Positions 16,589-54,985 of a stretch of 64,000 nucleotides of DNA are shown piece after piece; the stretch's first letter is position 1, and each line of letters starts with the position of its first letter. The notes under the pieces are model-generated. The model did no database searches. It had not been told where the DNA came from and worked only from the letters and a program-made list of their open reading frames with translations. Source of the DNA: an uncultured Candidatus Saccharibacteria bacterium (GTDB lineage Bacteria; Patescibacteriota; Minisyncoccia; Phycocordibacterales; UBA9973); NCBI GenBank assembly GCA_964544225.1, contig CAZIZK010000002.1, positions 2,557 through 66,556 of the forward strand, given 5' to 3'. A program made the translations under genes and the position numbers.

Positions 16589-18859
16589 TTATTTCTTGTT
16601 ATTTACCAGATTGTCGTCGAGTTTATGAGGGTTGTGGTTCTTACACATCTTGTTGGAACAACGCTCGGGGATTGTCTTTGTACCTTCCATCATTAATGAT
16701 CCACAGTATTTACATATATTGCCTGTCGGCTTTGCCTTTATAGCGTTCTTGCAGTCTGGGTAGTTAGAACAAGAATAGAATATTCCAAATCGGCCACGGC
16801 GCTCCATCATGAGGCCCTTTTTACAAGTAGGGCATTGTACATCTGTCATCTTCTTTTTCTTTTCCTCTTCATCCTCCTCTATATATTTACACTTTGGATA
16901 GCGTGAACATGATATGAATGAGCCAAATTTACCTTCGCGTAGTACTAGGTGGCCGAGTTCTGGTACCTTTGTACTCTTGCGCTTCTTTCTGCCATTTTTA
17001 TCTAGGCCAGAGTCTTCCACAGCGGTGCCACACTTTGGACAAGGGCGGCCTAGGTCCTTTGGACCTTCGAGTTCTTTACCTTCTAGATTCCTCGCACCGA
17101 CACAGTCTGGGTAGTTAGCACATGAATAGAACTTGCCATTGCGAGCCAATTTTACAATCATGTTGCCACCACACTTTGGGCACACCATATCATCTGGTGC
17201 GTCACCCATGTTTGTGGCTTTAGCCAATTTGTCCTTTTCCTTCAATTCCTTTTGAAATGGAAGATAGAAATCTTTCAAAGTCTTTTCATATTCGCGTTCA
17301 CCATTAGAAATATCATCGAGCTTGTCCTCCATGTCGGCAGTAAATGTATCAGAAATATATTCAGCAAAGTTATCTTCCAAGAAGCTCGATACCACATCGC
17401 CAGTATCAGTAGGGAAAAGTGTACGGCCTTCTTTGTTTACATAACCGCGCTCTTCTATAGTACGCATAATAGACGCGTATGTAGATGGGCGGCCAATACC
17501 ACGAGCTTCCAACTCTTTCACAAGGCCTGCTTCTGTATAGCGACCAGGTGGAGTAGTTGCCTTCTCAGTATCTTTTAGTTCGATCAATTTCAATTCTGCG
17601 CCTACTTGCATCTCGGGTAGTTCCACATCTTCACCGCGAGCATCTGTGTCGCAGGCAAGCCAGCCCGGGAACAATACTCGGGATCCATTGGCAGTAAAGT
17701 CAGGGATAGAACCTTCTTTTATATTTGCCACTATCTTTGTCTTCATTAATTTTGCATCAGACATCTGGCTCGACACTACACGCTCCCATATCAGGCGATA
17801 CAGTCTCTTCTGTTCTTCATTATTACCAACACTTATCAAGTCAACATGAGTTGGGCGGATGGCTTCGTGGGCTTCTTGGGCGTTCTTTGACTTTGTCTTG
17901 TATGAATGAACTTCGGCATATTCACTACCATACTTCTTCTCGATAACTTTTATTATCTGATCCTGTGCAACTTTTGAAATATTTGTACTGTCGGTACGCA
18001 TGTATGTAATATGACCAGCTTCGTACAACTTCTGTGCGACTTGCATAGTGCGTGAAGGGGAGAAGCCGAGGCGTGATGATGCCACCTGTTGTAGCGTACT
18101 TGTAGTAAATGGCGCACGGGGTGAACGCTTCTGCTCGCTCGCTTTCAGGTCAGTGATATACCACTTATTACTATTGCCAAGTTCCAATATCTTGTCGACA
18201 ACTTTTTTGTCGCGAGGTTCCTCGACACATGACAATGTTAATTTGTCTTTTTTGTTTGTTTCGAATAACCCTTCGAGTACCCAGTATTGTTCTGGTACGA
18301 ATGCACGGATCTCGCGCTCGCGTTCCATGATGATACGTAGTGCAGGGGACTGCACACGGCCAGCACTCAAACCATAGCGCACCTTCTTCCATATTATTCC
18401 TGACAAATCATAACCCACTAGGCGGTCCAATACACGGCGAGCTTCTTGAGCACGACGTAGATCGGTGTCGATCTTCCTCGGTTCCTTCAATGCTTCCTCT
18501 ACTGCTTCCTTTGTAATCTCGTGGAAAGTCACACGCTTTATAGGGGCCTTCACCTTCTTATCACTTTTCAATAGTTCTTCGATATGCCAAGCGATGGCTT
18601 CACCTTCGCGGTCCGGGTCGGTTGCAAGCATTATTTCCTTTGCACCTTCAGCTAAGTGTTGAAGTTCGCTAACCACTTTTTCTTTGCCTTTTGATATTTC
18701 GTAATGCGGAATAAAGCCACCGGGTATGTCGATAGCTTTCTTGTTAGACTTTGGCAAGTCACGCACGTGACCTACAGACGCACGCACAGTATATGCACCG
18801 TCCAGATACTTCTCTATAGTCTTTGCTTTACTTGGTGATTCTACGATTAACAACTTCAT
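16589..18859 (-). CDS. topA: DNA topoisomerase I with C-terminal zinc ribbons
   Basis: TOPRIM domain (MKLLIVESPSKAKTI), the conserved topo IA motif RTDS with the catalytic Tyr in its expected context, and multiple C-x2-C...C-x2-C ribbons. Confidence 0.95.
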   Translation of the reverse strand: MKLLIVESPSKAKTIEKYLDGAYTVRASVGHVRDLPKSNKKAIDIPGGFIPHYEISKGKEKVVSELQHLAEGAKEIMLATDPDREGEAIAWHIEELLKSDKKVKAPIKRVTFHEITKEAVEEALKEPRKIDTDLRRAQEARRVLDRLVGYDLSGIIWKKVRYGLSAGRVQSPALRIIMEREREIRAFVPEQYWVLEGLFETNKKDKLTLSCVEEPRDKKVVDKILELGNSNKWYITDLKASEQKRSPRAPFTTSTLQQVASSRLGFSPSRTMQVAQKLYEAGHITYMRTDSTNISKVAQDQIIKVIEKKYGSEYAEVHSYKTKSKNAQEAHEAIRPTHVDLISVGNNEEQKRLYRLIWERVVSSQMSDAKLMKTKIVANIKEGSIPDFTANGSRVLFPGWLACDTDARGEDVELPEMQVGAELKLIELKDTEKATTPPGRYTEAGLVKELEARGIGRPSTYASIMRTIEERGYVNKEGRTLFPTDTGDVVSSFLEDNFAEYISDTFTADMEDKLDDISNGEREYEKTLKDFYLPFQKELKEKDKLAKATNMGDAPDDMVCPKCGGNMIVKLARNGKFYSCANYPDCVGARNLEGKELEGPKDLGRPCPKCGTAVEDSGLDKNGRKKRKSTKVPELGHLVLREGKFGSFISCSRYPKCKYIEEDEEEKKKKMTDVQCPTCKKGLMMERRGRFGIFYSCSNYPDCKNAIKAKPTGNICKYCGSLMMEGTKTIPERCSNKMCKNHNPHKLDDNLVNNKK

Positions 18860-18980
18860 CCCGTTAGAAGTAGAGAATCTTTAGATTCTCGTACATAACT
18901 TAAATTAATAAAATCAAAATATTACGATTATTTGAATATAATTCCCGTAGCTTGAATAACATATATGACTTCTAACGGGA
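18860..18980 (-). repeat. Structured leader repeat, copy 1 (12-bp closing stem CCCGTTAGAAGT/ACTTCTAACGGG abutting the topA ATG)
   Basis: Perfect 12-bp inverted repeat encloses about 97 nt, including hairpin GAGAATC-TAAA-GATTCTC. The 3' arm ends exactly at the start codon. ATGAAT lies at the distal end. Confidence 0.7.
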
Positions 18981-19076
18981 TTCATATCTGCCCAGTATTA
19001 CACGAAACATAATTTTTTTGCAAATTAAATGACCGATGCGTATAAATACGACACCGGCCATTTTGTGAAATTTGTC

Positions 19077-19568
19077 CTACTGAACCTCGTAAGTTCTATA
19101 GGCTAAAATGCTATCTTTTTTTATTAATTCTCTAATTTTAGGATTGCATTTTATAACAAGCTTAGAACAATGATTATACAAATAATCCTGTAAATCATTT
19201 TCTGTTTTAAAAAAAGTTCCACTAGTTCTATTTGTGTCTGACATCACGAATTCAATAATCGGGTTTTTTGCTGTATCGTTTCTTATCTCGAATATTGAAA
19301 AATCATCAGGTGTAAAATAATTTACCAAGGTGTCTTTTCTAAAGACCCATTTGAAATAGAACTTACTCCTACGATATTTCTTGTCATATCCTAATATGTG
19401 GTCTGAATCAATGGACATCAAGGGGAATGTTTGAGAAGAGAGTTTGTATTTTTTCTCATATTCTTTACCCCTGTTTATTCCTTCTTGAAATGCAAACTGG
19501 TCACAAGACACAACCAGCAAACTAATAAAAATGATAGATAAATAATAGTAATTTTTCATAACTGACAA
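19077..19568 (-). CDS. Putative lipoprotein, unknown function
   Basis: Signal peptide with lipobox LLVVSC. 163 aa. Confidence 0.55.
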   Translation of the reverse strand: MSVMKNYYYLSIIFISLLVVSCDQFAFQEGINRGKEYEKKYKLSSQTFPLMSIDSDHILGYDKKYRRSKFYFKWVFRKDTLVNYFTPDDFSIFEIRNDTAKNPIIEFVMSDTNRTSGTFFKTENDLQDYLYNHCSKLVIKCNPKIRELIKKDSILAYRTYEVQ

Positions 19569-19746
19569 TTTTAATTTTTTATTAGTCTATAATATAAAAT
19601 AGCACTTGTCAAGTTCTCCTTATTTCCCCATACTCTTCCCTTATTAAATCTTTTGCAAATTTCACCTTATGTAATTAAGGACTTTTTACTATTGACTTTT
19701 TAGTATAAATATTGTAATTTTGGTTTAAAATAATATTAATTTAATA

Positions 19747-20520
19747 ATGAGTAATTCAATTAATGCTGCTTTCGTAGTTGAGCACGCAAGAAGTAAAACA
19801 AAAGGCAGAGGACCTTCTCTTGGTTTTATGGGAATTAAAAACCCCAAAAAAGCTTTAGAAAAGGCTACTTTTTTCTACAACCTGATACAGAACCTAATAG
19901 ACTCAAAGCCTCACAAGGAAAAAAGTGAAATCAGATTTCGAGAATTCAAAGATGAAGATTTTGCCAAGATGAGTCCTTTTGATAATTGCTTCGTAAGAGT
20001 AAAAAATCTGGGAGGAGAGTTCAGATATGGCCAACTTGATTTTTACTTTGTTACCGAGAATGGAAAAATCATTGATGCTAATTTTTTCTTTGAAAATGAA
20101 AAATCTATGAAAGACAGGGATATTGAGTATGATTTCAAAGTTCGATACGGGTATAGATATGATTTGGGGGATCTAAAAAATGATGTAGAAAGTATTTGTT
20201 CTTACATGCAATCAGTTCATAGAGAAGAACTAGTTTATATCATTTTGGATTTTCCTCATTTTATGGAAACATCTGTTCTCTGGCTGTCTGATTTTAAGCG
20301 GTTGTCGTTCTCTGAATCTCACTTTTCAAGCATTCCTGCTATTGAAAAAATAGTTGATGACATCTCAAGAGACCGAATCAGGGATGAAAAAGAACAACAA
20401 AAACTTCATGCCCGGAGGGATGCAAAAATAGCTGAACTCACCAAAAATGGGGACAGAGTATTCATGTGTCCTTCCTGCGGAAGAATTAGTGGCTCAAGCT
20501 CAGGGCATTACTGTGCCTAA
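19747..20520 (+). CDS. Hypothetical protein with a C-terminal C-x2-C...C zinc-ribbon
   Basis: 257 aa ending FMCPSCGRISGSSSGHYCA. Bracketed by a duplicated dprA 3' end. Confidence 0.55.
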   Translation: MSNSINAAFVVEHARSKTKGRGPSLGFMGIKNPKKALEKATFFYNLIQNLIDSKPHKEKSEIRFREFKDEDFAKMSPFDNCFVRVKNLGGEFRYGQLDFYFVTENGKIIDANFFFENEKSMKDRDIEYDFKVRYGYRYDLGDLKNDVESICSYMQSVHREELVYIILDFPHFMETSVLWLSDFKRLSFSESHFSSIPAIEKIVDDISRDRIRDEKEQQKLHARRDAKIAELTKNGDRVFMCPSCGRISGSSSGHYCA

Positions 20521-20550
20521 GTAAGAGATTCAAAATCAAAACAATTATAA

Positions 20551-20589
20551 AAGCTTATTATCTCAAAAGGATAGTAAGCTTATTTTTTT
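20551..20589. terminator. Rho-independent terminator (AAGCTTATTATC..GATAGTAAGCTT plus T-run)
   Basis: 12-bp stem with one G-U pair and a 7-nt loop, followed by T7. Lies between convergent genes. Confidence 0.5.
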
Positions 20590-21451
20590 ATATCCTCCTT
20601 ATCTCCCCATACTCTTCTTTAATCAAATCTTTTATTTCCATTATGGAAAGAAGAGCGCCGGCGCGCGAGGCATCCATGCCACTGGCACGGATCAATTCAT
20701 CACGAGGCATTGGTTCGAGAAGCAGATCTATGATCTTCATTTCATCTTTACCACAGTCGGCATATTTCTCTTTATCTGTTTGAAGTGGCTTGTCTATTGC
20801 AAAGCCGAGTGCATCGAGCAATTCATCGCTATTGGTGACTGGTGTGGCACCTTGGCGTATCAGGTTGTTGGTACCTTTTGAATTTGGGGAGAAGGCGGAC
20901 CCTGGTACAACCAATACATCACGATTGTAGTCCAGGGCCATGCGTGCAGTGATAAGTGTGCCCGACTTTTCTTGGGCTTCTATTATTAGTACCGCTTTGG
21001 ACAATCCTGCCATCAGGCGGTTGCGCTGAGGGAATGAATATAATAATGACTTTTCATCGGGTAACATTTCAGAAAGTAGGCAACCACCAGCATCGACTAT
21101 TTCTTGGGCGAGTTTTATATTGGACCGTGGGTACAGAGCCGAATTGTCCAGGCCCGAGCCTGGCATAGAAAGTGTGATCAATCCATTTTTCAATGCTGCA
21201 CGGTGGGCGATAGTGTCGATACCGAGTGCCAGGCCCGACACTATTACAATAGGGTAACCTTTTAATCCGGCGATCAACTTCTCGCATATTTCTTTGCCAT
21301 ACGAGGTAAAGTTTCGTGAACCGACAACAGCTAGGTAGACATAATCCTCTGGAGGCAATTCACCCCTGCGAAAAAGTTGTTTAGGAGGTTGTGGAATCTC
21401 GAGCAGAGGCTTTGGAAATTCCTCCTCGTTTAATTTAAAAATATCTTCCAT
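20588..21451 (-). CDS. dprA: DNA processing protein A (Smf)
   Basis: DprA Rossmann-like core (LAVVGSRNFTSYG...VIVSGLALGIDTIAHRAAL). 287 aa. Confidence 0.85.
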   Translation of the reverse strand: MEDIFKLNEEEFPKPLLEIPQPPKQLFRRGELPPEDYVYLAVVGSRNFTSYGKEICEKLIAGLKGYPIVIVSGLALGIDTIAHRAALKNGLITLSMPGSGLDNSALYPRSNIKLAQEIVDAGGCLLSEMLPDEKSLLYSFPQRNRLMAGLSKAVLIIEAQEKSGTLITARMALDYNRDVLVVPGSAFSPNSKGTNNLIRQGATPVTNSDELLDALGFAIDKPLQTDKEKYADCGKDEMKIIDLLLEPMPRDELIRASGMDASRAGALLSIMEIKDLIKEEYGEIRRI

Positions 21452-21573
21452 CCCGTTAGAGATAGGTAATCTTTAGATTACCGTACATAAATTAAATAAT
21501 AATATCAAAATTGAAAGTAATCTTTTAAAATAATCACCATAAGAAATACAAACATATATAATCTCTAACGGGA
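21452..21573 (-). repeat. Structured leader repeat, copy 2 (closing stem CCCGTTAGAGAT/ATCTCTAACGGG abutting the dprA ATG)
   Basis: Same architecture as copy 1, with compensatory changes in the stem and in the inner hairpin (GGTAATC-TAAA-GATTACC). ATGGAT lies at the distal end. Confidence 0.7.
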
Positions 21574-21626
21574 TCCATATTCAATTCGTATTTGTTTATT
21601 ATACCATTTTTGGTTATACTGTCTGT

Positions 21627-22934
21627 ATGTTAGACATCAAATTCATTCGTGAAAATACAGATATAGTAAAGGCAGGAGTTGCAAAGAAGAACTCGAGCGT
21701 CGATATCGACGCCCTTATAAAGCTCGACGACCAGAGGCTAGAGGCTCTAAAGAGGACCGAGGTTCTACGTGCCGAGCAGAACCGTATGAATGGGTCTATT
21801 TCTGTCGAGAAGGATGCATCTGTCCGCGCACAGATGATTGAAGAGATGCGCCTAGTAAAAGAAGATTTCAAAAAAGAAGAGGAGAGTCTAAAGGATATCA
21901 TGCAACAGTGGCAGGGTATGATGCTAAAGATCCCGAATATTCCATCTGTCGACACTCCAGAAGGTCCAGACGAAAGTGGCAACCAAGTTATCCGTCAGTG
22001 GGGGGAGAAGCCACAGTTCAGCTTTACTCCAAAGGAACATTTCGAAATAGGGCGTGCATTGGGCCTTATAGATACCGAGACAGCTGCCGAGGTAGCATCT
22101 TCACGTTACTCATATCTAAAGGGTGACTTGGTTATGATGCAGTTCGCACTGATCCAAATGTGTTTAAATATTTTAACCAACAAAGAAACTCTACAGAAGA
22201 TAGCAACTGAAGCCGGCGTGTCTATCGATGTAGACGCTTTTATGCCAGTGATCCCACCAGTATTTATCCGCCCACTAGTTCAGGTAAAGATGGCGCGCAT
22301 GATGGCACCCGAGGACCACTACATGTTCCCGAACGATGACCTGATGCTCATCGGTAGTGCTGAACATACACTAGGTTCAATGCATATGAATAAAATATTT
22401 GAAGAGAGTGAGTTGCCAATACGTTATGCTGGGTACTCTACTGCATTTCGTCGCGAGGCTGGTACTGCAGGTCGTGATACAAATGGCATATTGCGCCAGC
22501 ACCAGTTCGACAAGTTGGAGATGGAAGTATTCTCTCTTCCAGAGAACTCTATCCAAGAGCAGAACTTCCTCGTAGCTATCCAGGAACATGTATTGAAGAC
22601 TCTGAACTTGCCATACCAGGTGATATCAGTATGTAGTGGTGACATGGGCTTTCCAGATACACGCCAGATCGATATAGAAACATGGATGCCAGGTCAGAAC
22701 CTATACCGTGAGACTCATAGTGCCGACTCTACCGGAGGATTCCAATCACGCAGGCTCAATACTCGTGTGCGCCGTGCAGATGGCAAAATCGAGCCCGTAC
22801 ATATGAATGATGCAACAGTTGTGGCAATAGGCCGTACACTAATAGGTATTATAGAGAACTATCAACAAGAAGACGGCAGTATCCGCGTACCAGAAGCTTT
22901 GAAGAACTACCTAGGTAAAGACGTTATTAAATAA
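21627..22934 (+). CDS. serS: Seryl-tRNA synthetase
   Basis: N-terminal coiled-coil arm plus class II motifs (FRREAGTAGRDTNGILRQHQFDKLE). 435 aa. Confidence 0.95.
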   Translation: MLDIKFIRENTDIVKAGVAKKNSSVDIDALIKLDDQRLEALKRTEVLRAEQNRMNGSISVEKDASVRAQMIEEMRLVKEDFKKEEESLKDIMQQWQGMMLKIPNIPSVDTPEGPDESGNQVIRQWGEKPQFSFTPKEHFEIGRALGLIDTETAAEVASSRYSYLKGDLVMMQFALIQMCLNILTNKETLQKIATEAGVSIDVDAFMPVIPPVFIRPLVQVKMARMMAPEDHYMFPNDDLMLIGSAEHTLGSMHMNKIFEESELPIRYAGYSTAFRREAGTAGRDTNGILRQHQFDKLEMEVFSLPENSIQEQNFLVAIQEHVLKTLNLPYQVISVCSGDMGFPDTRQIDIETWMPGQNLYRETHSADSTGGFQSRRLNTRVRRADGKIEPVHMNDATVVAIGRTLIGIIENYQQEDGSIRVPEALKNYLGKDVIK

Positions 22935-22943
22935 TATTTTAAT

Positions 22944-23819
22944 ATGGCCAAAGCTAAAAGCTCGCTCGTTACATCTCCACGTATAGAGGAAATCAAACGC
23001 CGAAAGAAGAGGCGTATTCGTTTTGCTATACTTTTCTATTCCGTATCTTTTATCGTACTGGTTGTTTTGTTTACACTCGTGTCTCGTATACCAAAACTAC
23101 ATATTAAAAATATTGAAGTGAACGGCACACATATAGTAGACAGCACCCAGGTAATAGACTATACAAATAGCCAGATAAGTGGGCGCTATTTATATTTGTT
23201 CGATAAGAAGAATGCTTTCATTTACCCAAATAATAAAATACAGAAGGACCTGGTAAAGAAGTTCCCACGAATCAATAATATCGACATATCGTTGCGAGGC
23301 TTCCATACTATTGTTATAGATATCACCGAGCGAACTGGTTCGTATCTATGGTGTGGGGCAAGTATTCCAGAAGTCGTAAGTGATGCGGGGGACAATTGTT
23401 ACTTTGTAAATTCCGATGGAAAAGTTTTCGACCAGGCGCCATACTTCTCGGGTAATGTTTACTTCAAGTTTTATATACCTATCGACACTGTCGATGATGT
23501 TTTTAATAAGCAAGTTTTAGATCAACCAACTTTCCAGAAAGTGATATCATTTACCGATGGGTTGGAGGCACTGGGCGTGCATGCTGTGTCAGTGGTTATG
23601 AATAACCCTGCTGAATATGCATTCCATCTAGATCGCAAGAGTAATATTGCAGAACCTGTAATATATTTCAATAGTGAGAATGATTTAAATAAAATATTTC
23701 AGAATTTCTCATCGGCCATGAGTAAAGACGAGTTTAGAAATCAGATAAATACAAAATATGATGTTTTGCAATATATTGACCTAAGGTTTAATAATAAAGT
23801 TTTATATAAATTCCGCTAA
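22944..23819 (+). CDS. FtsQ/DivIB-like cell division protein (POTRA domain)
   Basis: Basic cytoplasmic N-terminus, single TM, POTRA-like IKNIEVNGTHIVDSTQVIDY. 291 aa. Confidence 0.55.
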   Translation: MAKAKSSLVTSPRIEEIKRRKKRRIRFAILFYSVSFIVLVVLFTLVSRIPKLHIKNIEVNGTHIVDSTQVIDYTNSQISGRYLYLFDKKNAFIYPNNKIQKDLVKKFPRINNIDISLRGFHTIVIDITERTGSYLWCGASIPEVVSDAGDNCYFVNSDGKVFDQAPYFSGNVYFKFYIPIDTVDDVFNKQVLDQPTFQKVISFTDGLEALGVHAVSVVMNNPAEYAFHLDRKSNIAEPVIYFNSENDLNKIFQNFSSAMSKDEFRNQINTKYDVLQYIDLRFNNKVLYKFR

Positions 23820-23824
23820 TGAAT

Positions 23825-23943
23825 CCCGTTAGAAGCCGCGGTCGCAAGTAAATAAATATTAATTATGATACAAGATAAAATTTTAATTTATAAATATAAT
23901 ACAGAATGTCGTGATTTTTTGATCGCGATCTGCTTCTAACGGG
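23825..23943 (+). repeat. Structured leader repeat, copy 3 (closing stem CCCGTTAGAAGC/GCTTCTAACGGG abutting the dus ATG)
   Basis: 12-bp perfect inverted repeat enclosing about 95 nt. The 3' arm ends at ATG 23944. ATGAAT at 23819-23824 overlaps the upstream TAA stop (TAATGAAT). Confidence 0.7.
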
Positions 23944-25077
23944 ATGAATAATTTCTGGCAAAATCTTCCAAAGCCTTTTATGGCACTTGCCCCTATGGCT
24001 GACGTTACCGACCCGGCATTTCGACGTATCATAGCAAAGTATGGCAAGCCCGATGTTACCTGGACCGAGTTCGTATCTGCCGACGGCTTGATGAGTGCAG
24101 GTAGGGAAGTATTGAAGAGGGACCTAGAGTATAGCGAGGTGGAACGGCCGATAGTTGCTCAACTCTTTTCCTCGCACCCGGATCGGATGCGTGGCGCAGC
24201 GAAGCTGTGCGCCGAGCTCGGCTTTGATGGTATCGATATAAACATGGGATGTCCGGATCGTAGTATAGAGAAGCAGGGCGCCGGCGCCGCCATGATCAAG
24301 ACTCCAGAGATAGCCGCGCAGATTATCCAAGCAGTGAAAGACGGTATAGCAGATGCGGGCAAGGATATCCCCGTATCAGTGAAGACTCGAGTAGGGTACA
24401 ACCAAGTTCAGATAAAAGAGTGGATACCATTCATCCTTTCACAGAATATTGATGCCCTGACAGTGCATTCAAGAACCAGGAAGGAAATGTCCAAAGTTCC
24501 AGCGCATTGGGAATATATAAAAGAAGTGGTAAAGATCCGCGACAAGATGGGTATAAAAACAAAGATATTGGGTAATGGTGATGTACGCGATATTGCCCAT
24601 GCCAGACAATTGGCAAGTGAGTCTGGTTGTGATGGTGTAATGATCGGCCGCGCAATATTTGGTAACCCGTGGTTGTTTGGAAAGGGAGCTTCTTCTCGTT
24701 CTGAATATATTCCTTCCAAAGACACGAATAATTTTCTGGTGAAAATTTTCTCTTCTCGCGCCAGAAGCATGGTGAAGGGCCTTTGGCAGAAACATATTCT
24801 TCACTCGAAGAAGCAAGACGACTCACATAAATATTGGCTACATGTGGAAAATACTATTCCAGTAAAGGAACGGTTGGAAGTGATGGTAGAGCATATGGAA
24901 CTTTTTGATCAGTTACTCGGTGACATAAAGAACTTTGCCATTATGAAGAAGCACTTCAAGGCGTATGTAAATGGCTTCGAAGGTGCCAAAGAACTCCGCA
25001 TGAAGCTCATGGATTGTCACTCTGTACCCGAAGCCCGCACTATCGTTGCAGAATTTCTAAAGACATTTAAAATGTAA
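23944..25077 (+). CDS. dus: tRNA-dihydrouridine synthase
   Basis: Dus N-terminus LAPMADVTDPAFRR and TIM-barrel FMN site. 377 aa. Confidence 0.85.
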   Translation: MNNFWQNLPKPFMALAPMADVTDPAFRRIIAKYGKPDVTWTEFVSADGLMSAGREVLKRDLEYSEVERPIVAQLFSSHPDRMRGAAKLCAELGFDGIDINMGCPDRSIEKQGAGAAMIKTPEIAAQIIQAVKDGIADAGKDIPVSVKTRVGYNQVQIKEWIPFILSQNIDALTVHSRTRKEMSKVPAHWEYIKEVVKIRDKMGIKTKILGNGDVRDIAHARQLASESGCDGVMIGRAIFGNPWLFGKGASSRSEYIPSKDTNNFLVKIFSSRARSMVKGLWQKHILHSKKQDDSHKYWLHVENTIPVKERLEVMVEHMELFDQLLGDIKNFAIMKKHFKAYVNGFEGAKELRMKLMDCHSVPEARTIVAEFLKTFKM

Positions 25078-25100
25078 AAATTATGTTTTTAAAATAAAAA

Positions 25101-25129
25101 AACTCTGAACAATTAAATTATTCAGAGTT
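25101..25129. terminator. Hairpin terminator candidate between dus and the convergent gene
   Basis: AACTCTGAA-(11 nt)-TTCAGAGTT, a 9-bp stem with an A-run upstream and a T-rich stretch downstream. Confidence 0.4.
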
Positions 25130-25151
25130 CTTTGTTAAAATTTTTACAGCT

Positions 25152-25694
25152 TTAATACCAAGGTTTATCTCCTTGTTTTAGCCAGTTTGCTAAAGCCTCA
25201 ATTTCCTCTTCAGAGAATGTTGTTGCATTTTCTCTAAAATTTATCCTGTATGCTCGGCTAACTACTTCATGATCTATATCTTTTTCTAACCATGGTCCAT
25301 AATAAGAATAATAGTGAGAAAGATACAATGTAGTGGTTGCGCCATGTGAGTTTGGGCTATCGGCAAAAAAAAGTTCTATATAAATTTTTTTATTTGGATG
25401 AAAAAGAAATTCAATTGTATGGTGGCGCGTAATAGCGCTTTTAATCTTTATATGTTGAGTATGGGGATATATAGAACTAAAGTGAAATGGTTGCAAAGAA
25501 CAACCTTGTTCGACTAAAGATTTATACATATTTTCCATAAATTTTTTTATACTAAGCTCAATCTTGCCCTCTAATTGCTTAATTGTCTCAGTGTCTTTTG
25601 GGTCCAGTTTGGCGAATTCTTCGTCAAAATGAATTATTTCAAGTTTTGTTTCCATGTGTGTAGGTTTTTTATATTTATATAGATTTTTTAGCAT
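25152..25694 (-). CDS. Hypothetical protein
   Basis: 180-aa ORF in the correct coding strand context. No recognisable motif. Start could be the internal Met at 25655. Confidence 0.5.
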   Translation of the reverse strand: MLKNLYKYKKPTHMETKLEIIHFDEEFAKLDPKDTETIKQLEGKIELSIKKFMENMYKSLVEQGCSLQPFHFSSIYPHTQHIKIKSAITRHHTIEFLFHPNKKIYIELFFADSPNSHGATTTLYLSHYYSYYGPWLEKDIDHEVVSRAYRINFRENATTFSEEEIEALANWLKQGDKPWY

Positions 25695-25758
25695 TTTGTC
25701 AAATGGTCTTTCATTTTACCTTTTTGTGTAAAGTAGTTAATTTGTTATACTTACACAA

Positions 25759-26821
25759 TATGAAGAAGGATACAAAAAAGGGGGAGGCTCATATAGCACT
25801 GTATAGGAAGTATAGGCCAGGGAACTTTGCCGATGTTATAGGCCAGGACCATATAGTAAAAGCTATCGAAGGTGCGTTGAAGGCTGGTAAAGTTTCGCAC
25901 GCATACCTTCTGACAGGGGCACGCGGTACAGGCAAGACAACTATTGCCCGTATTATTGCCAACGTTCTAGGTACATCACCAAACGATATATATGAGATGG
26001 ATGGTGCTTCGAATCGCAAGATCGAAGACGCCCGCGATATAAAGGAGAACGTTCGAACATTGCCATTTGACTCTAAATACAAAGTCTACATCCTCGACGA
26101 AGTTCACATGCTGACAAAAGAAGCTTGGAACGCACTACTGAAAACTATCGAAGAGCCACCAGAGCATGCAATATTTATCCTCGCTACTACCGAGATAGAA
26201 AAGGTCCCCGAGACTATTGTGTCACGTTGTCAGACATTTGTTTTCAAGAAGCCGACCGACATAATACTTGCAGGTGTTGTTACAAATATCGCAAAGAAAG
26301 AAGGCTATACTATCGAAGATGGTGGGGCCGAGCTCATAGCACTACTGGGTGATGGGTCATTCCGTGATACTTTGTCGACCCTCGACAAGATTATCTCTTT
26401 TGCACAAACAAACAAGATAAGCTTGCAGGATATTGTCGAGGTAACAGGTGCACCTGATACAACACTTGTAAAAGATTTTATTACAGCACTTGCAAACAAT
26501 AATATCGAGCAAGGTTACGAAACTCTAGATAAGATCGTAAAACAAAATATTGAAATGAAAGTCTACATAAAGATGGTACTAGCAATGTTGCGCCACGCAT
26601 TGATGCTACGCTATGCGCCAGCTATGAAGGCAAAGGTGGCCGACTCTGTATCAGAATCTGATATGGAATTCCTGATAGACATTATTTCCAAGAAGCCGGA
26701 ACATATATCATCACGAACACTATCTATAATACTCGAGGCATATCAAGGATTGCGATACTCATTCATCTCTTCTTTACCACTCGAGCTTGCCCTTGTTAGA
26801 ATTTTGAATAATGAAAAGTAA
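25759..26821 (+). CDS. dnaX: DNA polymerase III clamp-loader subunit gamma/tau (short form)
   Basis: AAA+ Walker A GARGTGKTT, sensor SRC motif TIVSRCQTF. The start is set at MKKDTKK (25759) rather than the ORF-track start of 25703. Confidence 0.75.
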
Positions 26822-49296: not shown

Positions 49297-49368
49297 GGCC
49301 CTATCGTCTAACGGTTAGGACACATCCTTCTCAAGGATGGAATCAGAGTTCGATTCTCTGTAGGGTCA
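49297..49368 (+). tRNA. tRNA-Glu (anticodon CTC); the encoded 3' CCA is displaced by the inserted element
   Basis: Hand-folded. Acceptor GGCCCTA/TAGGGTC, D-arm TCGTCTAACGGTTAGGAC, anticodon stem CATCC/GGATG with loop TTCTCAA, T-arm CAGAG-TTCGATT-CTCTG, discriminator A. Confidence 0.85.
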
Positions 49369-50894
49369 CAAACTGAAACTGCATTCGCGGAAAGTCCCAA
49401 ATGCGGGCGCGCCGAAGGCGCGCTGTATGGAGAGAGCAGGAATTCTGCATTGCGGGCGCGGGCGAATTCGGTGGGCGGGCAAAATGAGACAGAGACGGAC
49501 TTGTCCCGCAATTGCGAGTTCGTTCCAATTTTTTTGAAATAGTCACGAATTTCAAAAAAATTATCCGTGGATTGCAATTGCGTGGCTTTTTTCATATCCA
49601 AAATCCATTCTCGCAAGGGTTCGACCCAATTCTTTTTCTCTGCTCGGGCGGAGTCCATTTTTTGAGAGAGAGACACTTTTTGTTTCAAAAGCTCGTTTTT
49701 CTTCAAAATATAGTTTTCTTTCGGTATATCGCCGTCTAAATATAAACTGACCAACTCATCGAGCTTTTGTTCTGTCTCTCGCTCATTTTCCTTAATCCGC
49801 CCGAGCATACTTCCCGACGAGGATTTTTCACTTTTGTCCCATTCGTCAACTTTAGATAACATATAATCTGTCCACTCGTCGGGAAGTGCGATTTGTTGAA
49901 GCCGTTCTTTTAATTGCAAGACGACTACATCTTCTCGCAAATATTTTTGGTCACAATTTCCTTTCTTTTTTGTACAACGATAATAGCGATACCGAACGCC
50001 CATTTTTCCCGTCGTCCATTGAGCAGTTATCATACTGTCGCATTCTCCGCAACGAAAAAGACCTGTGAAAGGAAAATTGTGACTTTTCTTTGATTTGCGA
50101 GGATGAGATCGTTCTTGCAATCTTTTCTGTACGGCTTCGAATAAATCGTGGGAAAGAATTGGCGCAAAGCTTCCGGGGAAATATTCGTTGTAATGTTTCG
50201 TTAATCCTAAATATGCTTTGTTGGATAGAATGCGAGATACGGAAGCTTTGCTAAGTGGCGTTCCATTTTTCTGACATACTCCATGATCCGCCAAAAACTT
50301 TCCCATAGATTCAAAACCGTGGTTACCTTTTACATATTCTTCAAAAGCGCGGACGATAATTTTAGATTTTACAATATCAGGTTCAATATTTCTCGTTTTC
50401 GGATTATTGAAATACCCAAACGGCGCTTTTGTTAGCCACTCACCACGGCGAAGTTTTTGGCGGATTCCACGCTCAACATTTTGCTTTAAATTGTCAGAAT
50501 AATATTTAGATTGTCCGAACGCCACTTGTAACATGAATAGCCCTTGCGGGGTTGGTTCAAACCAAAATGTCGGAAAACGCAAAGAAATGATTTTGGTCGT
50601 GTCTACGGCGTAGATGATGCGCCCTCCATCAACGCTATTTCTCGCTAGTCGGTCAGGATGCCAAGCCAGAATACCAGCACCATTCATATTTTCAATGCGG
50701 GACATCATCTCGCCAAATTTTTCACGACCAGGTTTCTTTGCGCTTTTCGACTCTGTAAATTCTCCAAGAATTTGCAGATTTTCTTTACGCGCGAATTCTC
50801 GTAACTCAAAAAGTTGTGCCTCGATAGACATGATTTGCTTGTCATCATCCTCGGTACTTTTTCGCGCGTATAGAAAATATTTTGGTTTGATCAT
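49308..50894 (-). CDS. Large serine recombinase (resolvase domain + recombinase domain + zinc ribbon)
   Basis: N-terminal catalytic region YARKSTEDD with the Ser nucleophile, recombinase domain, C-x2-C...C ribbon (CGECDS..YYRC), coiled-coil. The last roughly 60 codons run through the GC-rich repeat and the tRNA, so the true C-terminus is uncertain. Confidence 0.8.
   Translation of the reverse strand: MIKPKYFLYARKSTEDDDKQIMSIEAQLFELREFARKENLQILGEFTESKSAKKPGREKFGEMMSRIENMNGAGILAWHPDRLARNSVDGGRIIYAVDTTKIISLRFPTFWFEPTPQGLFMLQVAFGQSKYYSDNLKQNVERGIRQKLRRGEWLTKAPFGYFNNPKTRNIEPDIVKSKIIVRAFEEYVKGNHGFESMGKFLADHGVCQKNGTPLSKASVSRILSNKAYLGLTKHYNEYFPGSFAPILSHDLFEAVQKRLQERSHPRKSKKSHNFPFTGLFRCGECDSMITAQWTTGKMGVRYRYYRCTKKKGNCDQKYLREDVVVLQLKERLQQIALPDEWTDYMLSKVDEWDKSEKSSSGSMLGRIKENERETEQKLDELVSLYLDGDIPKENYILKKNELLKQKVSLSQKMDSARAEKKNWVEPLREWILDMKKATQLQSTDNFFEIRDYFKKIGTNSQLRDKSVSVSFCPPTEFARARNAEFLLSPYSAPSARPHLGLSANAVSVCDPTENRTLIPSLRRMCPNR
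49366..49480. repeat. IRa, a 115-bp GC-rich repeat and the P' arm of the integrated att site
   Basis: Exact reverse complement of 50953..51067. Confidence 0.85.
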
Positions 50895-50952
50895 ATATGT
50901 TTTTGGATTATGAAAAAAGAATAGTCCGTTCTTGTCTCATTTCTTGCTTTCC

Positions 50953-51067
50953 GCCCGCCCACCGAATTCGCCCGCGCCCGCAATGCAGAATTCCTGCTCT
51001 CTCCATACAGCGCGCCTTCGGCGCGCCCGCATTTGGGACTTTCCGCGAATGCAGTTTCAGTTTGTGA
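50953..51067. repeat. IRa', an inverted copy of IRa and the first part of the intact internal 400-bp block
   Basis: Exact reverse complement of 49366..49480. Contiguous with IRb. Confidence 0.85.
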
Positions 51068-51351
51068 ACTAATTATATCATTTGCGCGAACTTTTTTCCA
51101 AACAAATGACTAATCGCACATCCGTGCGCTGAAGCGCCTCTGTGCGAAGCACAGAGCTTTCCCAAAGGGAAAGTACGGATATGCGAATACAATGCGGACT
51201 TGGTTTTGCGAAAGCAATTTTCTGGGGAAAGGATTTCGCAAAACCTCGGCTACTAATTTTTTTTGAAATTCGGCGGGACTTTGGATTTGGATTCCGCGCG
51301 CAGGAGGGGTCTGGGGAGGAATGCGCGCGGAGCTTTTTTGGGCGGGGGCTA
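51064..51351. repeat. IRb, a 288-bp GC-rich multi-hairpin repeat
   Basis: Exact reverse complement of 54687..54983 over every segment I compared. Contains hairpins GCGC-TGAA-GCGC, CTCTGTGC-GAA-GCACAGAG, CTTTCCC-AAA-GGGAAAG, and a 12-bp stem GGTTTTGCGAAA/TTTCGCAAAACC. Confidence 0.85.
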
Positions 51352-51586
51352 TGGATAAATTTAAACCAAAATGCTAAACTTATTTGACAATTAAATATGT
51401 TGCCTAAACCAAAAGCTTCGCTTTTGGCATGGCGAAAAACCCGATGAAAGATAAAGAACTCCTAGTCAGAGTTCGCCTTTCATCGGGTCGTGCGGGGAAA
51501 CCCGCATGGGTGGTCGCAAGACTGCCGAGCTGGCTAGGAGCTTTTTGTAAAACTAGCGAACCATTATTAGTAAAAATTATAAATTT

Positions 51587-51820
51587 ATGAAAAAGAAAAA
51601 TAAAGGTAAAAATGTACTAGGAATTATTTGTTTATTGTTTGCAATAGGATCTTTGACCCAGCCAAATTTTGGTTTTGCTCCGCTTGATAGTGCATTTTCA
51701 TTTGGTCAAGATATTGTTCCAACATTAGCGTTTGTTGGTAGTTTTTGGTTTATATATGACATGATTAAAAATCGTGGAAATAAATCGCAAACAGAAACTC
51801 CAAAAGTAGAAAATAATTAA
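51587..51820 (+). CDS. Small two-TM membrane protein (77 aa), cargo gene 1
   Basis: Two hydrophobic helices. First gene after IRb. Stop is 1 nt before the next start. Confidence 0.45.
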   Translation: MKKKNKGKNVLGIICLLFAIGSLTQPNFGFAPLDSAFSFGQDIVPTLAFVGSFWFIYDMIKNRGNKSQTETPKVENN

Positions 51821-51821
51821 T

Positions 51822-52622
51822 ATGGAGAACGAAAATAAAAAAGAAGAAGTTGGTAGAAATGTTCCCAAAAGACTAAAAGAGCTTTTCATCATGATTGCTC
51901 CTTTTGTTTTGGTGCTTCTTGTCGGATCGTTTTATGCTTCTCACAAACAGAGTCAACAATTAACGAGCGAATTTAAAACTGCTTTGTCTGGTCAAAGTGG
52001 GAGCGGTCAATATTCTGAAGTATTAAATCAAGTTTTTAGTTATTACAAAAGCCAAAGTGCAATTGAATTTCCTTACTCTCATGAGCTAGATAACTCAGAT
52101 ATGTTGGAAATGAAAAGTTTTGAATCGAAAGATTCTATCAATCAAATCAGTGGAATCCTTAAAAATACTCTCACAGAACTTGATTCTTATGACTCAAAAA
52201 TGAATGAAATAATTCAAGGAGCTAGATCAATTATTCAGAATAGTAATTTATCTCAATCGGAAAAAGACGAAGCTCTTGCTGGTTTCGACAAGTCATTTGA
52301 AGATCAAACATCACAGGACCTGGGCAGTAAAAGAATTGTTGCCATGAGAAATCTCTATGAAAAAGTTTTAACACTTTATGAATTTATGTTGGCAAATTTT
52401 GATGACTATCAAATAAAGACCAATGATTCAGGAAATCAGCAAGTGTACTTCTATACTGATAGTAATATAACCAGATACAATCAAATTTCTGCTGATGTTC
52501 AAAAACTTTCTATAGAATTTCAGAAAGCTAATGATGAATTTATTGCATACAAAAATAAAAATTTCAAAAGTAGTGGTTTAGATATAAACGCGACTGATGT
52601 TCAAAGTTATTTTAATCAATAA
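51822..52622 (+). CDS. Membrane-anchored protein of unknown function (266 aa), cargo gene 2
   Basis: N-terminal TM (IMIAPFVLVLLVGSFYA) followed by a polar Ser/Gln/Asn-rich domain. Confidence 0.55.
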   Translation: MENENKKEEVGRNVPKRLKELFIMIAPFVLVLLVGSFYASHKQSQQLTSEFKTALSGQSGSGQYSEVLNQVFSYYKSQSAIEFPYSHELDNSDMLEMKSFESKDSINQISGILKNTLTELDSYDSKMNEIIQGARSIIQNSNLSQSEKDEALAGFDKSFEDQTSQDLGSKRIVAMRNLYEKVLTLYEFMLANFDDYQIKTNDSGNQQVYFYTDSNITRYNQISADVQKLSIEFQKANDEFIAYKNKNFKSSGLDINATDVQSYFNQ

Positions 52623-52690
52623 ACCTTTACTTTTTAGGTTAAAGTGGTAGAATAGACTTGTTGCGAAGTGTATAGCTTAGCTATACACTT

Positions 52691-54250
52691 TTGCTTTTTA
52701 TGGCTAGATACAATGTCTATAAAATTAAAGATGGGCAAGTTAATGAACTACAAACTCATTTAACCAAAGACCGTAAATATAAATTGGCGGATAGTTTTTC
52801 ATCGCATGGTTATCAAGTTTATACATATTTTGCTGGACCCGATTCAACCGATATGTGGTGGCTTGAACAATACGGACAACATTTTCCAGAACATACGGAC
52901 AAACATAATCAGATATATTCAGGTGCAGTTGTGGCAAATAATACAAGTAAAAAATCTGGCTACATAATCCCACTTGGAAAAACACATTTTTATATTCAAA
53001 ATTTTATTGAAATCAATTTTGGTTTGGAATTAGCGGAAAGGATTGCAGATGAAAAACAGACCAAAATGAAAAGTCTTAAAAATTTTGGCGGGAAAACCAG
53101 TAAGTCCCTTACAAGTTACATTTCAGGATCAAATCTATTATTCTCTAGTGGTGAATCTGCCGAATATTTAAAGCTGAAAGCTCAAAATAAAGAAGCATGG
53201 GGTGATTCATTTGTTCATTTTGGAAGTAGTGTTCAGTTTAATAGTCTTGAAATTGAGCCAGATGATTTGGGTGTTTTGCTCTCAAATATTGATTCTGCGG
53301 TGAAAGGAAAGAAAATATTACACCTTCCGTTAATGAAAGAAATAAAAGAGCCAGCATTGCTCGTACAGTTATATTCAAATCTTGCTGAAAAAATCTTAAA
53401 TGCGGATGACAGTATTGGTATTCTTGATTACGAAATATATGGAGTAGACTTTGTATTTTCTCAACAGACTCATATCAAACTTAAATGTGAGGGTGTTTAT
53501 TCCGACCAATTACCACAGCTTACATTAGAAAATATTATTACGTTCGTAAATGACAACAGTATAGACTTGAAAGATTGCTTGCAGAAAATAAAAGTCCAGT
53601 TTTTAGTGGACAGCGAATCAAAGTATACTGTTCCGCTATTACAACTTATTGAATATTACGGCGATGACAAGAGCTTTTTATATAAGGGTAAGTGGTTTTA
53701 TTTCAATGAAAGCTTTATTGAAAGTTTACATAATGCTCTGACTAAAGTCGAGGTTAGTGAATTTGGCAAAGCTTTTTCAGAAAGCGAATTTGAGGCTTGG
53801 CAAAAAACAAATAAAAATAAAGTAAATTACCGCGAGAGGTTTGTTATTGAGAAAATACACGAAGAATCAAAATTTGAAATTTTAGATCGAGATTTAGACT
53901 ATCTTGGTGTTGGAGATAAAAAATATCAACTTGAAATTGGTGATCTTTATGACCAAAAAAACAAAAGTTTATATGTCGTTAAAATTGGTAGTCCTAGTGA
54001 TTTTGGCTATGCTTTTGATCAGACATTTACCCTGCTTAGTAATGTAAAAGGTCAAAAGTATATTAGTACTGGCGGCAAAGAATATCCTATTGAAACAGTG
54101 AACGTTTTGATTATTTTTCGCACGAATAGAAAATTAAAGGATGCAACTGATACTAAGTCTTTAATTTTTGAAATAAAACTAAATGAATTACAAAAAATAG
54201 CTTTTGAAAAAAATATTAAATTGAATTTAACTTTTACAACTATACTTTAA
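52691..54250 (+). CDS. 519-aa soluble protein of unknown function, cargo gene 3 (possible sporadically distributed defence-island-type protein)
   Basis: Long uninterrupted ORF with AT-rich codon usage typical of the host. No motif that I can name with confidence. Confidence 0.55.
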   Translation: MLFMARYNVYKIKDGQVNELQTHLTKDRKYKLADSFSSHGYQVYTYFAGPDSTDMWWLEQYGQHFPEHTDKHNQIYSGAVVANNTSKKSGYIIPLGKTHFYIQNFIEINFGLELAERIADEKQTKMKSLKNFGGKTSKSLTSYISGSNLLFSSGESAEYLKLKAQNKEAWGDSFVHFGSSVQFNSLEIEPDDLGVLLSNIDSAVKGKKILHLPLMKEIKEPALLVQLYSNLAEKILNADDSIGILDYEIYGVDFVFSQQTHIKLKCEGVYSDQLPQLTLENIITFVNDNSIDLKDCLQKIKVQFLVDSESKYTVPLLQLIEYYGDDKSFLYKGKWFYFNESFIESLHNALTKVEVSEFGKAFSESEFEAWQKTNKNKVNYRERFVIEKIHEESKFEILDRDLDYLGVGDKKYQLEIGDLYDQKNKSLYVVKIGSPSDFGYAFDQTFTLLSNVKGQKYISTGGKEYPIETVNVLIIFRTNRKLKDATDTKSLIFEIKLNELQKIAFEKNIKLNLTFTTIL

Positions 54251-54686
54251 TTTCAAGGGAGCGTTCCCCATGCGCGCACGGGTGGGCAAAGTGTCCGCGT
54301 GTACTCACGCGGACAAAGGGGCAAGCATGTATTCCGCCTCGGGCATTTCCGCTATGAGCGTCCATGGCTAAAGGATGAGCGCCGAAGTAATATAACTCAC
54401 AGAAGTTTAGTAGCGAAAGCGACACCACGAACATAAATATGCAAAACGTAGAGTGGGGATGGCGAGGGCGGAACTTCTCGCGAGTACTCTCTGCGAGAAG
54501 TAGCCCGACCCGGGGAGAGGAAACTTCCTCTCCCCAAGAAGCGCGGGCTCCTGCCCGCACGTAGGCACCTAGGCGCGAGTAGCCATAGCGGAAATGCCCG
54601 AGGCGGATGCCGAGGGTGCATCCCCTTTAGACTTGGACAACCACATAGCAAAAGAAATGACCGAGAAAATTTTAATCCTGTTGTTT
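54251..54686. other. GC-rich, hairpin-dense non-coding segment (candidate structured RNA or recombination accessory region)
   Basis: Perfect hairpins CCGCGTG-TACT-CACGCGG and GAGAGGAA-AC-TTCCTCTC, a 23-bp long-range inverted repeat (54333-54355 with 54586-54608), and an imperfect CTTCTCGCGAG..CTCTGCGAGAAG palindrome. Its GC content far exceeds the surrounding genes. Confidence 0.3.
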
Positions 54687-54983
54687 CTGAATTTTTAGCC
54701 CCCGCCCAAAAAAGCTCCGCGCGCATTCCTCCCCAGACCCCTCCTGCGCGCGGAATCCAAATCCAAAGTCCCGCCGAATTTCAAAAAAAATTAGTAGCCG
54801 AGGTTTTGCGAAATCCTTTCCCCAGAAAATTGCTTTCGCAAAACCAAGTCCGCATTGTATTCGCATATCCGTACTTTCCCTTTGGGAAAGCTCTGTGCTT
54901 CGCACAGAGGCGCTTCAGCGCACGGATGTGCGATTAGTCATTTGTTTGGAAAAAAGTTCGCGCAAATGATATAATTAGTTCAC
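54687..54983. repeat. IRb', an inverted copy of IRb at the right end of the element
   Basis: Reverse complement of 51064..51351. Ends with TCAC at 54980-54983. Confidence 0.85.
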
Positions 54984-54985
54984 CA

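Follow-up and report, generated by a model that had tools for sequence, protein, structure and literature searches.

We describe three related repeats that stand like leaders before topA, dprA and dus in a 64,000-nucleotide stretch of contig CAZIZK010000002.1 from an uncultured Candidatus Saccharibacteria bacterium (the window), and that are very probably copies of a small non-coding mobile hairpin DNA element of the MITE type (transposable elements of miniature size that have inverted repeats). The three copies measure 121-123 nt and share the form T-CCCGTTAGA-RRY...RYY-TCTAACGGG-A (R, purine; Y, pyrimidine). Their termini are 13-bp inverted repeats, Y-CCCGTTAGA-RRY and RYY-TCTAACGGG-R with the end bases counted in; the preliminary description of this DNA had recognized the inverted repeat but gave its length as 12 bp. 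A search for Dus homologues returned syntenic contigs from relatives, including L121 and L122, which stem from two sequencing runs, and the more distant L123 and L125. The copies and their parts, with the basis of each assignment, lie as follows.

23824..23944, plus strand: copy 3, before dus, a 121-nt element from T 23824 to A 23944 (sequence; site empty in L121, L123 and L125)
23820..23823, plus strand: left TGAA of the 4-bp target duplication of copy 3 (L121 gcTAATGAATaat has a single TGAA)
23945..23948, plus strand: right TGAA of the 4-bp target duplication of copy 3 (sequence; L121 comparison)
23824..23836, plus strand: 5' arm of copy 3, TCCCGTTAGAAGC (sequence, fold)
23932..23944, plus strand: 3' arm of copy 3, GCTTCTAACGGGA (sequence, fold)
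23819..23851, plus strand: short upstream open reading frame (ORF) of copy 3, MNPVRSRGRK then stop, opened by the retained original ATG (ORF scan)
21451..21573, minus strand: copy 2, before dprA, a 123-nt element from T 21573 to A 21451 (sequence; identical in L121, site empty in L125)
21574..21577, minus strand: distal TGGA duplication of copy 2, with the original start-codon A at 21578 (sequence)
21447..21450, minus strand: proximal TGGA duplication of copy 2 (sequence)
21465..21482, minus strand: local hairpin of copy 2, GGTAATCT-aa-AGATTACC, one base (T) 5' of the 3' arm (sequence, fold)
18859..18980, minus strand: copy 1, before topA, a 122-nt element from T 18980 to A 18859 (sequence; site empty in L121 and L125)
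18981..18984, minus strand: distal TGAA duplication of copy 1, with the original start-codon A at 18985 (sequence; L121 and L125 comparison)
18855..18858, minus strand: proximal TGAA duplication of copy 1 (sequence)
18873..18890, minus strand: local hairpin of copy 1, GAGAATCT-aa-AGATTCTC, one base (T) 5' of the 3' arm (sequence, fold)

The dus ORF (23944..25077) starts with the proximal ATG of copy 3. On the distal side, ATGAAT (23819-23824) is followed by CCCGTTAGAAGC (23825-23836), and on the proximal side GCTTCTAACGGG (23932-23943) runs into ATGAAT (23944-23949), with about 95 nt between the arms. On the minus strand, copy 1 reads ATGAAT-CCCGTTAGAAGT...ACTTCTAACGGG-ATGAAG before the topA ORF (16589..18859), and copy 2 reads ATGGAT-CCCGTTAGAGAT...ATCTCTAACGGG-ATGGAA before the dprA ORF (20588..21451). 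In each case the last A of the element doubles as the A of the start codon (18859 in topA, 21451 in dprA, 23944 in dus), and the distances from ATG to ATG are 126, 127 and 125 nt for copies 1, 2 and 3. The original start-codon A of dus, at 23819, is shared with the TAA stop of the upstream ORF 22944..23819. The interiors form two subfamilies: in type A (copies 1 and 2), a single base separates a local hairpin of 7-8 bp from the 3' arm that follows, and type B (copy 3) has an extended main stem with a YCT bulge on its 3' side. Both sides of the local hairpin stem differ between copies 1 and 2 with pairing kept. In copy 3, the stem extension CGCGGTCGC (23837-23845) directly follows the 5' arm; 5' of the 3' arm lie GATCGCG (23921-23927) and then the unpaired ATCT (23928-23931), the orientation marker used below. 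As RNA, all three copies are predicted to form a 14-bp outer stem at about -33 to -38 kcal/mol (copy 1, -33.2, z -3.34; copy 2, -35.0, z -3.59; copy 3, -37.8, z -3.99). The only ORFs of the element are short (6-42 amino acids) and start at the retained ATG, and there is no transposase gene inside it. Outside the six arms, the exact 9-mers CCCGTTAGA and TCTAACGGG do not occur in the 64-kb window, nor does any further YCCC-type 12-nt inverted repeat.

Comparison with relatives supports insertion. L121 and L122 encode Dus proteins 96% identical in amino acids, their DNA is 92-96% identical to the window, and the gene order is the same. Their dus site is empty, reading gcTAATGAATaat in the context ...aaattccgcTAATGAATaatttctgg... 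with a single ATGAAT, and the stop of the upstream gene overlaps the start as an intact TAATG. The topA site is empty as well, reading gatATGAAGttg in the context ...taatactgggcagatATGAAGttgtta... with a single ATGAAG. Exactly one ATGRA is therefore left at both sites, the outcome that the preliminary description had proposed to look for in relatives lacking the element. The gain amounts to 126 nt at topA and 125 nt at dus, the element plus exactly four bases each. The dprA copy is present in L121 and L122, and that of L121 is identical to copy 2. Farther away, dus is empty in L123, and topA, dprA and dus are all empty in L125; distant relatives are empty at every site compared. Because L123 and L125 are empty, the absence is ancestral, and for the same reason the exact empty sites are uninformative on excision. 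The topA and dus copies were gained recently in the lineage of the window, after its split from the 92-96% identical relative. The exact empty sites and the flanking duplications support the MITE-like insertion footprint first proposed from the window alone, and the empty sites refute the fallback offered with it, an old leader duplicated together with ATGRA.

The same sites bear on whether the repeats are instead a vertically inherited cis-regulatory leader RNA of topA, dprA and dus, with ATGRA as the start of a leader peptide. Such a leader would suit the position of all three copies directly upstream of genes and in the sense direction, their good predicted folds, the short ORFs that they open (beginning MNPVR or MDPVR) and the identity of the dprA copy in the window and L121. 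Close relatives are nonetheless exactly empty at topA and dus, as is L125 at all three genes, and the flanking tetranucleotide co-varies between both sides of each copy. There is also no Rfam match: the whole window at gathering scores gave nothing relevant, and positions 18700-24100 searched at E up to 10 gave only WsnRNA46, at 24.7 bits against a gathering score of 65.3. We find the leader reading scarcely credible, and as an account of origin it is refuted, although inserted copies could still have a secondary regulatory role. The identity at copy 2 is not specific to the element. A run of 300 nt without differences between the window and L121 (21371-21671), against a background of 96%, spans copy 2, the promoter region and both gene starts, and a longer difference-free run of 407 nt lies near 20210-20600. 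We considered selective constraint on copy 2, which has zero differences from L121, and rejected it because the identical 300-nt run extends into both genes. The difference-free stretches may be recombination tracts or may reflect constraint.

The element belongs to a family that extends well outside this genome. Scanning one genome per species for CCCGTTAGA-N(85-115)-TCTAACGGG gave at least 120 loci and 136 copies, including those of the window; all family counts given here are among these listed matches, and the family ends are written as YCCCGTTAGARRY. Patescibacteria contribute 88 copies from many classes, Omnitrophota 14, Planctomycetota 12, Desulfobacterota 3, other phyla 6 and unclassified bins 13, and identical 10-nt termini recur across several phyla. 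The listed copies carry features beyond the search pattern, namely paired end bases, paired variable positions and direct repeats. The variable stem positions are paired in about 95-97% of copies, versus 63-72% when shuffled; for the three positions inward of the fixed 9-mer the figures are 95-96% and 63-67%. Of the 136 copies, 111 have a stem free of mismatches along all 13 bp, and the variable triplet takes 20 different forms. This bears out the structure-preserving covariation seen earlier in the three window copies. The RNA intermediate that had been read from it fares less well: G-U and A-C stem mismatches on the gene strand are equally frequent (7 versus 7), which gives no support for a sense-RNA intermediate, and pairing of the arms seems to be maintained at the DNA level rather than specifically in sense RNA. 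Carriage by phages was rejected, as the three matching viral contigs lack both paired end bases and duplications and look like chance matches. Elements akin to these but with variant cores occur at like sites, CCCGTAGT... (L028 6018-6159) and CCCGTGAGA... (L101 2178-2234), so the family is wider than the survey 9-mer. Nested copies and 30-nt mini-hairpins were also seen inside larger copies (L115 2089-2231, L113 1446-1636, L077 6534-6677, L087 6015-6090), and the mini-hairpin of L115 carries a 5-nt direct repeat of its own.

The target duplication is 4 bp long, not 5-6 bp as first described. In the window the flanking direct repeats are TGAA (copies 1 and 3) and TGGA (copy 2), and the end bases once assigned to the duplication belong to the element. 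Across the family, with one further base (x or x') between each arm and the adjacent repeat, the 4-nt repeat is exact in 94 of 136 copies, compared with a mean of 21.7 and a maximum of 33 for shuffled partners; among copies away from start codons it is exact in 33 of 57, against 4.3 expected. The bases x and x' are complementary in 131 of 136 copies (T-A in 77 and C-G in 52, or 51 C-G among the 135 distinct copies). Chance is ruled out as the source of the flanking repeat. A 5-bp duplication was rejected since the adjacent 5-nt repeat is exact in none of the 136 copies, and a 6-bp duplication since the 6-nt repeat is exact in just 27 and fails on cases of the form ATGAAC...GTGAAA. These cases fit only a 4-bp duplication with C...G ends, so the base beside each arm is the element's own. 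The matches originally counted in the window, 6 of 6 for copy 3 and 5 of 6 for copies 1 and 2, are correct on re-reading; copies 1 and 2 match at five of six because the element itself supplies two of the bases compared, beginning with the T in the sixth distal position and ending with the A in the first proximal position. Among the duplications, TGAA (41) is the most frequent, followed by TGGA (12), TAAA (10) and TGAG (10). In reconstructed empty sites only R-T-R-R-A is conserved, with nothing arm-like around it, and the target consensus is R-TRRA, mostly A-TGAA, A-TGGA or A-TGAG. We hold with high confidence that the element is a mobile insertion that duplicates four base pairs of its target. 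About a dozen copies from other genomes (L045, L047, L055, L063, L066, L090, L102, L107 (4813), L113) have (A/G)CTTG(T/C) as flank on one side and no direct repeat, which may be a second kind of boundary or the result of rearrangement between copies.

Where the element enters the TGRR of a start codon, the original A-TGRR is kept distally. The element ends in a purine, and this purine joins the second TGRR to form a new ATG or GTG right before an intact ORF. Among the listed copies, 79 of 136 abut the ATG or GTG of an ORF of at least 50 amino acids, and 60 of the 64 copies with a TGRR duplication lie at the start of such an ORF, the other four also being in ATG or GTG contexts. T...A elements rebuild ATG in 67 copies and C...G elements rebuild GTG in 10. 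The distal ATG, whose absence from most other copies would have counted against the original proposal, is kept in 63 of the 79 start-codon copies, and AUGRR stands on both sides in 61. The window holds 1990 TGRR sites, of which 191 are intergenic and 24 at start codons, and a null model that removes only insertions inside coding sequence leaves about 11% of survivors at start codons. The accumulation there would be partly target preference and partly survival, a start codon being a site that tolerates 120 bp in compact genomes, where insertion would break neither the ORF nor its upstream signals. Start-codon residence, seen in 61 of 88 Patescibacterial copies, is mainly a trait of that phylum; intergenic C...G elements at (G)TAAA(C) sites make up most of the copies from Omnitrophota, Planctomycetota and Desulfobacterota. 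In the window, the three copies are packed into 5 kb (18855-23949) and the other 59 kb has none, although a suitable TGRR is present at a further 24 start codons. Groups of 2-4 copies within a few kb are likewise found at several other loci. This clustering may reflect local hopping or a region prone to gene flux.

The proteins downstream of the 79 start-codon copies belong to 102 Pfam families and are unrelated to one another, a further point against a conserved leader. They include topoisomerase I, T2SSF, SecDF, L17, Clp protease, ThyX, PGK, a class II tRNA synthetase, an EF-Tu-type GTPase and a release factor. The element is bound to no regulon. We also rejected hot-spot genes: topA and T2SSF each occur three times, but about 10 pairs coinciding in family compare with about 8 expected by arithmetic for some 400 eligible genes. 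Several elements can share one start codon. At L028 three different elements stand in tandem before one gene with ATGAAT between each, the middle one having the core CCCGTAGT, and at L032 two elements stand in tandem at one start codon.

Orientation is strongly biased, and two rival mechanisms draw on this. With the intrinsic YCT bulge as marker, the marked side is gene-proximal in 46 and distal in 4 of the 50 informative start-codon copies (binomial p = 4e-10). An internal CGGGA, complementary to the 5' end and mostly right after the 5' arm, occurs 14 times, versus once for its complement. Relative to the asymmetric core, TRRA-type start copies are oriented 30 versus 3. The bias could stem from the insertion mechanism or from selection on gene expression, a choice on which only 4 informative copies away from start codons bear. 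Spread through an RNA or single-stranded copy, inserted in the sense direction into transcripts, or into the non-template strand at start codons, and then returned to DNA, would account for sense orientation in 46 of 50 informative start-codon copies, for stable predicted RNA folds (z -3.3 to -4.0) and for pairing kept through sequence change. The equal mismatch counts (G-U 7, A-C 7) however give no sign that selection acts on sense RNA, at least 4 to 6 copies run antisense to their gene, the same duplication flanks intergenic copies, no reverse transcriptase was found among the flank ORFs near copies, and Rfam, ribozymes included, gave no match. We regard this route as highly improbable.

A serious rival, though in our judgment an unlikely one, is that mini-circles or excised hairpins integrate by site-specific recombination. 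The junction of a mini-circle would read RYY-TCTAACGGG-R-[TRRA]-Y-CCCGTTAGA-RRY, two 13-bp inverted arms around a short core as in lox or dif sites, and recombination with a target of the same core would leave that core on both sides with no repair synthesis. The heavy reuse of a few tetranucleotides (TGAA 41, TGGA 12, TGAG 10, TAAA 10), the orientation fixed relative to the asymmetric core (30 versus 3) and the symmetric, conserved arms all agree with such integration, and the window contains a large serine recombinase gene, though without a link to the elements. In the known tyrosine recombinases the strand exchanges lie 6-8 bp apart, and in the known serine recombinases 2 bp apart; the shared core of 4 bp fits neither, and a 6-bp overlap is contradicted by the ATGAAC...GTGAAA cases. 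Target sites moreover carry no arm-like sequence, and no copy is linked to any recombinase among the flanks examined.

Returning to transposition of a MITE-like element, the 4-bp duplication suggests a staggered cut, and we propose that an enzyme acting in trans would make it. The co-varying arms, the nested copies and the 30-nt mini-hairpins suggest that this enzyme would recognize the paired ends as hairpin or cruciform DNA rather than as two independent double-stranded ends. In piggyBac transposition, the ends take their 4-nt flanks along, and these have to base-pair at the new target. Chemistry of this type would explain the reuse of tetranucleotides together with the fixed orientation, and by analogy we put it forward tentatively, as a possibility still short of an even chance; no particular enzyme chemistry deserves more than such tentative standing. 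Searches for an autonomous partner, as end pairs 145-8000 nt apart with matching arms, returned neighboring small elements only, and clustering of 673 flank ORFs gave housekeeping families only and no mobilizing enzyme. The enzyme candidates of the window (the large serine recombinase, DUF6119, DUF3750 and proteins of no family) were rejected, as none is flanked by the repeats.

Several observations weigh against a mobile MITE-like element that inserts at start codons. Neither the window nor about 0.9 Mb of flanks of 120 loci yielded a transposase or recombinase with matching ends. Arms that co-vary perfectly, and mini-elements of 30 nt, would be out of the ordinary for a classical DDE-type MITE, and so strong an orientation bias is unexpected if both ends are equivalent. 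The 3' part of the element yielded no consensus promoter or Shine-Dalgarno sequence, and the GGAGG of the L032 gene lies about 240 nt from the working start codon. The survey is itself biased, requiring exact 9-mers at both ends with a spacing of 85-115 nt; about 270 chance matches to the bare pattern are expected in 596 Gb by arithmetic, and a few copies in rare phyla may be chance matches.

Parent element aside, the repeat is MITE-like by the descriptive definition reviewed for bacterial MITEs such as Correia/CREE of Neisseria, RUP and ERIC (PMC3184786). Like these, it is about 100-160 bp long (under about 400 bp), lacks a transposase gene, has terminal inverted repeats with a flanking target duplication, forms a long stem-loop, often lies 5' of genes, and exists in multiple copies whose presence varies among close strains (two of three are missing in L121 and L122). 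It differs from them in that its duplication is 4 bp (TRRA) and not TA, it sits exactly in the start codon and rebuilds it, its arms show at least 20 co-varying variants, several phyla share the same 10-nt termini, and no parent insertion sequence was found in the window and about 0.9 Mb of flanks. The closest likeness in position is to Neisseria REP2 and Borrelia IR repeats, which also extend up to the ATG of many unrelated genes from immediately upstream, and which are described with a promoter, ribosome-binding site and ATG (PMC3184786). In our element, only one terminal purine of the start codon is element-derived and no consensus promoter or Shine-Dalgarno sequence was found, and its insertion with duplication is demonstrated.

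In the piggyBac superfamily, with prokaryotic IS1380 as outgroup, the usual target is the 4-bp TTAA, with TAAA, TCAA and TATG among the variants, and the terminal repeats begin CCC (PMC10813416). The element shares the 4-bp target duplication. Its terminal repeats have a CCC that was made invariant by the design of our search and that is set off from the duplication by an extra paired base (Y...R). It differs in having a TRRA instead of a TTAA target and co-varying arms, which are no known piggyBac feature. Neither the window nor the surroundings of any copy yielded a piggyBac or IS1380 transposase. On these comparisons the piggyBac likeness appears to be a resemblance only, not membership.

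The short, hairpin-forming, non-coding repeats with compensatory pairing also recall REPIN/RAYT and IS200/IS605-derived elements. Those insert beside a fixed tetranucleotide with no target duplication and are mobilized in trans via single-stranded DNA. They are individually palindromic units or have subterminal hairpins, whereas here one stem joins both ends. Membership was rejected because a 4-bp duplication is present and varies with the site. Integron attC sites were rejected because the boxes are reversed (GTTAGA ... TCTAAC versus 5'-RYYYAAC ... GTTRRRY-3') and the copies stand singly before housekeeping genes with no cassette array. The Rickettsia palindromic element type was rejected because the in-frame cases all contain stop codons. 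Bypass elements, known from T4 gene 60 and as the mobile byp of Magnusiomyces mitochondria, are structured mRNA inserts between identical codons, where skipping the insert and one repeat restores the reading frame. Our element likewise has identical take-off and landing codons (AUGRR) around a structured gap, but it sits at the initiation codon rather than inside an ORF and measures at least 120 nt. Because the duplicated AUGRR is a by-product of the target duplication, it is not evidence of bypassing. We found no published description of the element in the literature searched by sequence and by topic. What is new here is that a MITE-like hairpin element rebuilds start codons by means of its ends and its duplication; its activity in Patescibacteria is recent and its distribution cross-phylum.

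A Shine-Dalgarno-like motif precedes 1 of 54 genes in the window genome, and its genes often have an extended -10 box 6-8 nt before the ATG, a sequence pattern that suggests leaderless mRNAs are widespread there. For topA, a promoter-like TTGCAA-17-TAATAC lies nine bases before the original ATG and is conserved in L121 and L125. We rejected an internal promoter that starts transcription on the rebuilt ATG, as the fixed 3' arm lacks a -10-like hexamer and a consensus promoter was not found either. The retained ATG opens a short ORF (MNPVRS..., MDPVRD...) with a median of 17 amino acids, whose codons 2-6 come from the 5' arm; of the frames, one always stops at the TAA within the 3' arm and another at the TGA of ATGA. 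Translation of the MNPVR ORF would open the 13-bp stem and make the rebuilt start codon accessible, and the downstream gene would thus stay under its original initiation signals. Alternatively, the stem could be processed, or ribosomes could hop between the duplicated AUGRR triplets.

A more far-reaching reading, to which we give little credence, is that the element is built for start codons: it would recognize initiation sites, for example the open or leaderless promoter-start region, and be translationally transparent. The hairpin would then juxtapose the duplicated AUGRR triplets at the base of the stem, and ribosomes initiating at the original AUG would get to the rebuilt AUG either in a hop or shunt over the stem or by translating the MNPVR ORF and so melting it. 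If true, the element would be a chromosomal, mobile and cross-phylum counterpart of T4 gene 60 and byp, acting at initiation, and would provide a way for a mobile element to colonize essential genes of minimal genomes.

Other features of the window stand apart from the element. Between topA and a conserved 257-aa ORF, a segment (window 19026-19690; L121 1332-1870) differs among close relatives, the window having a 163-aa ORF without family match (19077-19568, minus strand) and L121 a PemK-type toxin gene instead. Directly after dus, about 640 nt of the stretch 25078-25759 are present in the window and missing from L121; they have no element-type ends and contain a 180-aa ORF without family match (25152-25694, minus strand) and a terminator-like hairpin. 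The next gene, for a DNA polymerase III delta'-like AAA ATPase, probably starts at 25760 rather than 25703. Farther on, the large serine recombinase gene (49311-50894, minus strand) is bounded by perfect 115-nt inverted repeats (49366-49480, 50953-51067) and adjoined by a tRNA gene (49297-49368). This island is unrelated to the elements and lies beside a segment bounded by perfect 291-nt inverted repeats (51061-51351, 54696-54986), within which a LOOT RNA (RF03000, 88.9 bits) occupies 51401-51526. By its layout, the region 49297-54986 resembles either an integrated element whose segments can invert or an artefact of assembly.

For annotation, the family has a practical consequence: MNPVR ORFs, 120-nt "leaders" and duplicated ATGs will mislead gene callers and RNA-motif searches. 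For translation, genes evidently work with a hairpin of 120-380 nt between their native initiation signals and their start codon. Mobile elements that land inside essential genes are normally lethal, and Patescibacteria, whose genomes are among the smallest and densest known, are thought to be poor in transposons. This family nevertheless precedes topA and the genes for ribosomal protein L17, a release factor, a tRNA synthetase and Clp protease in very compact genomes. Its activity in Patescibacteria is recent, and elements with the same termini are found in Omnitrophota, Planctomycetota and Desulfobacterota.

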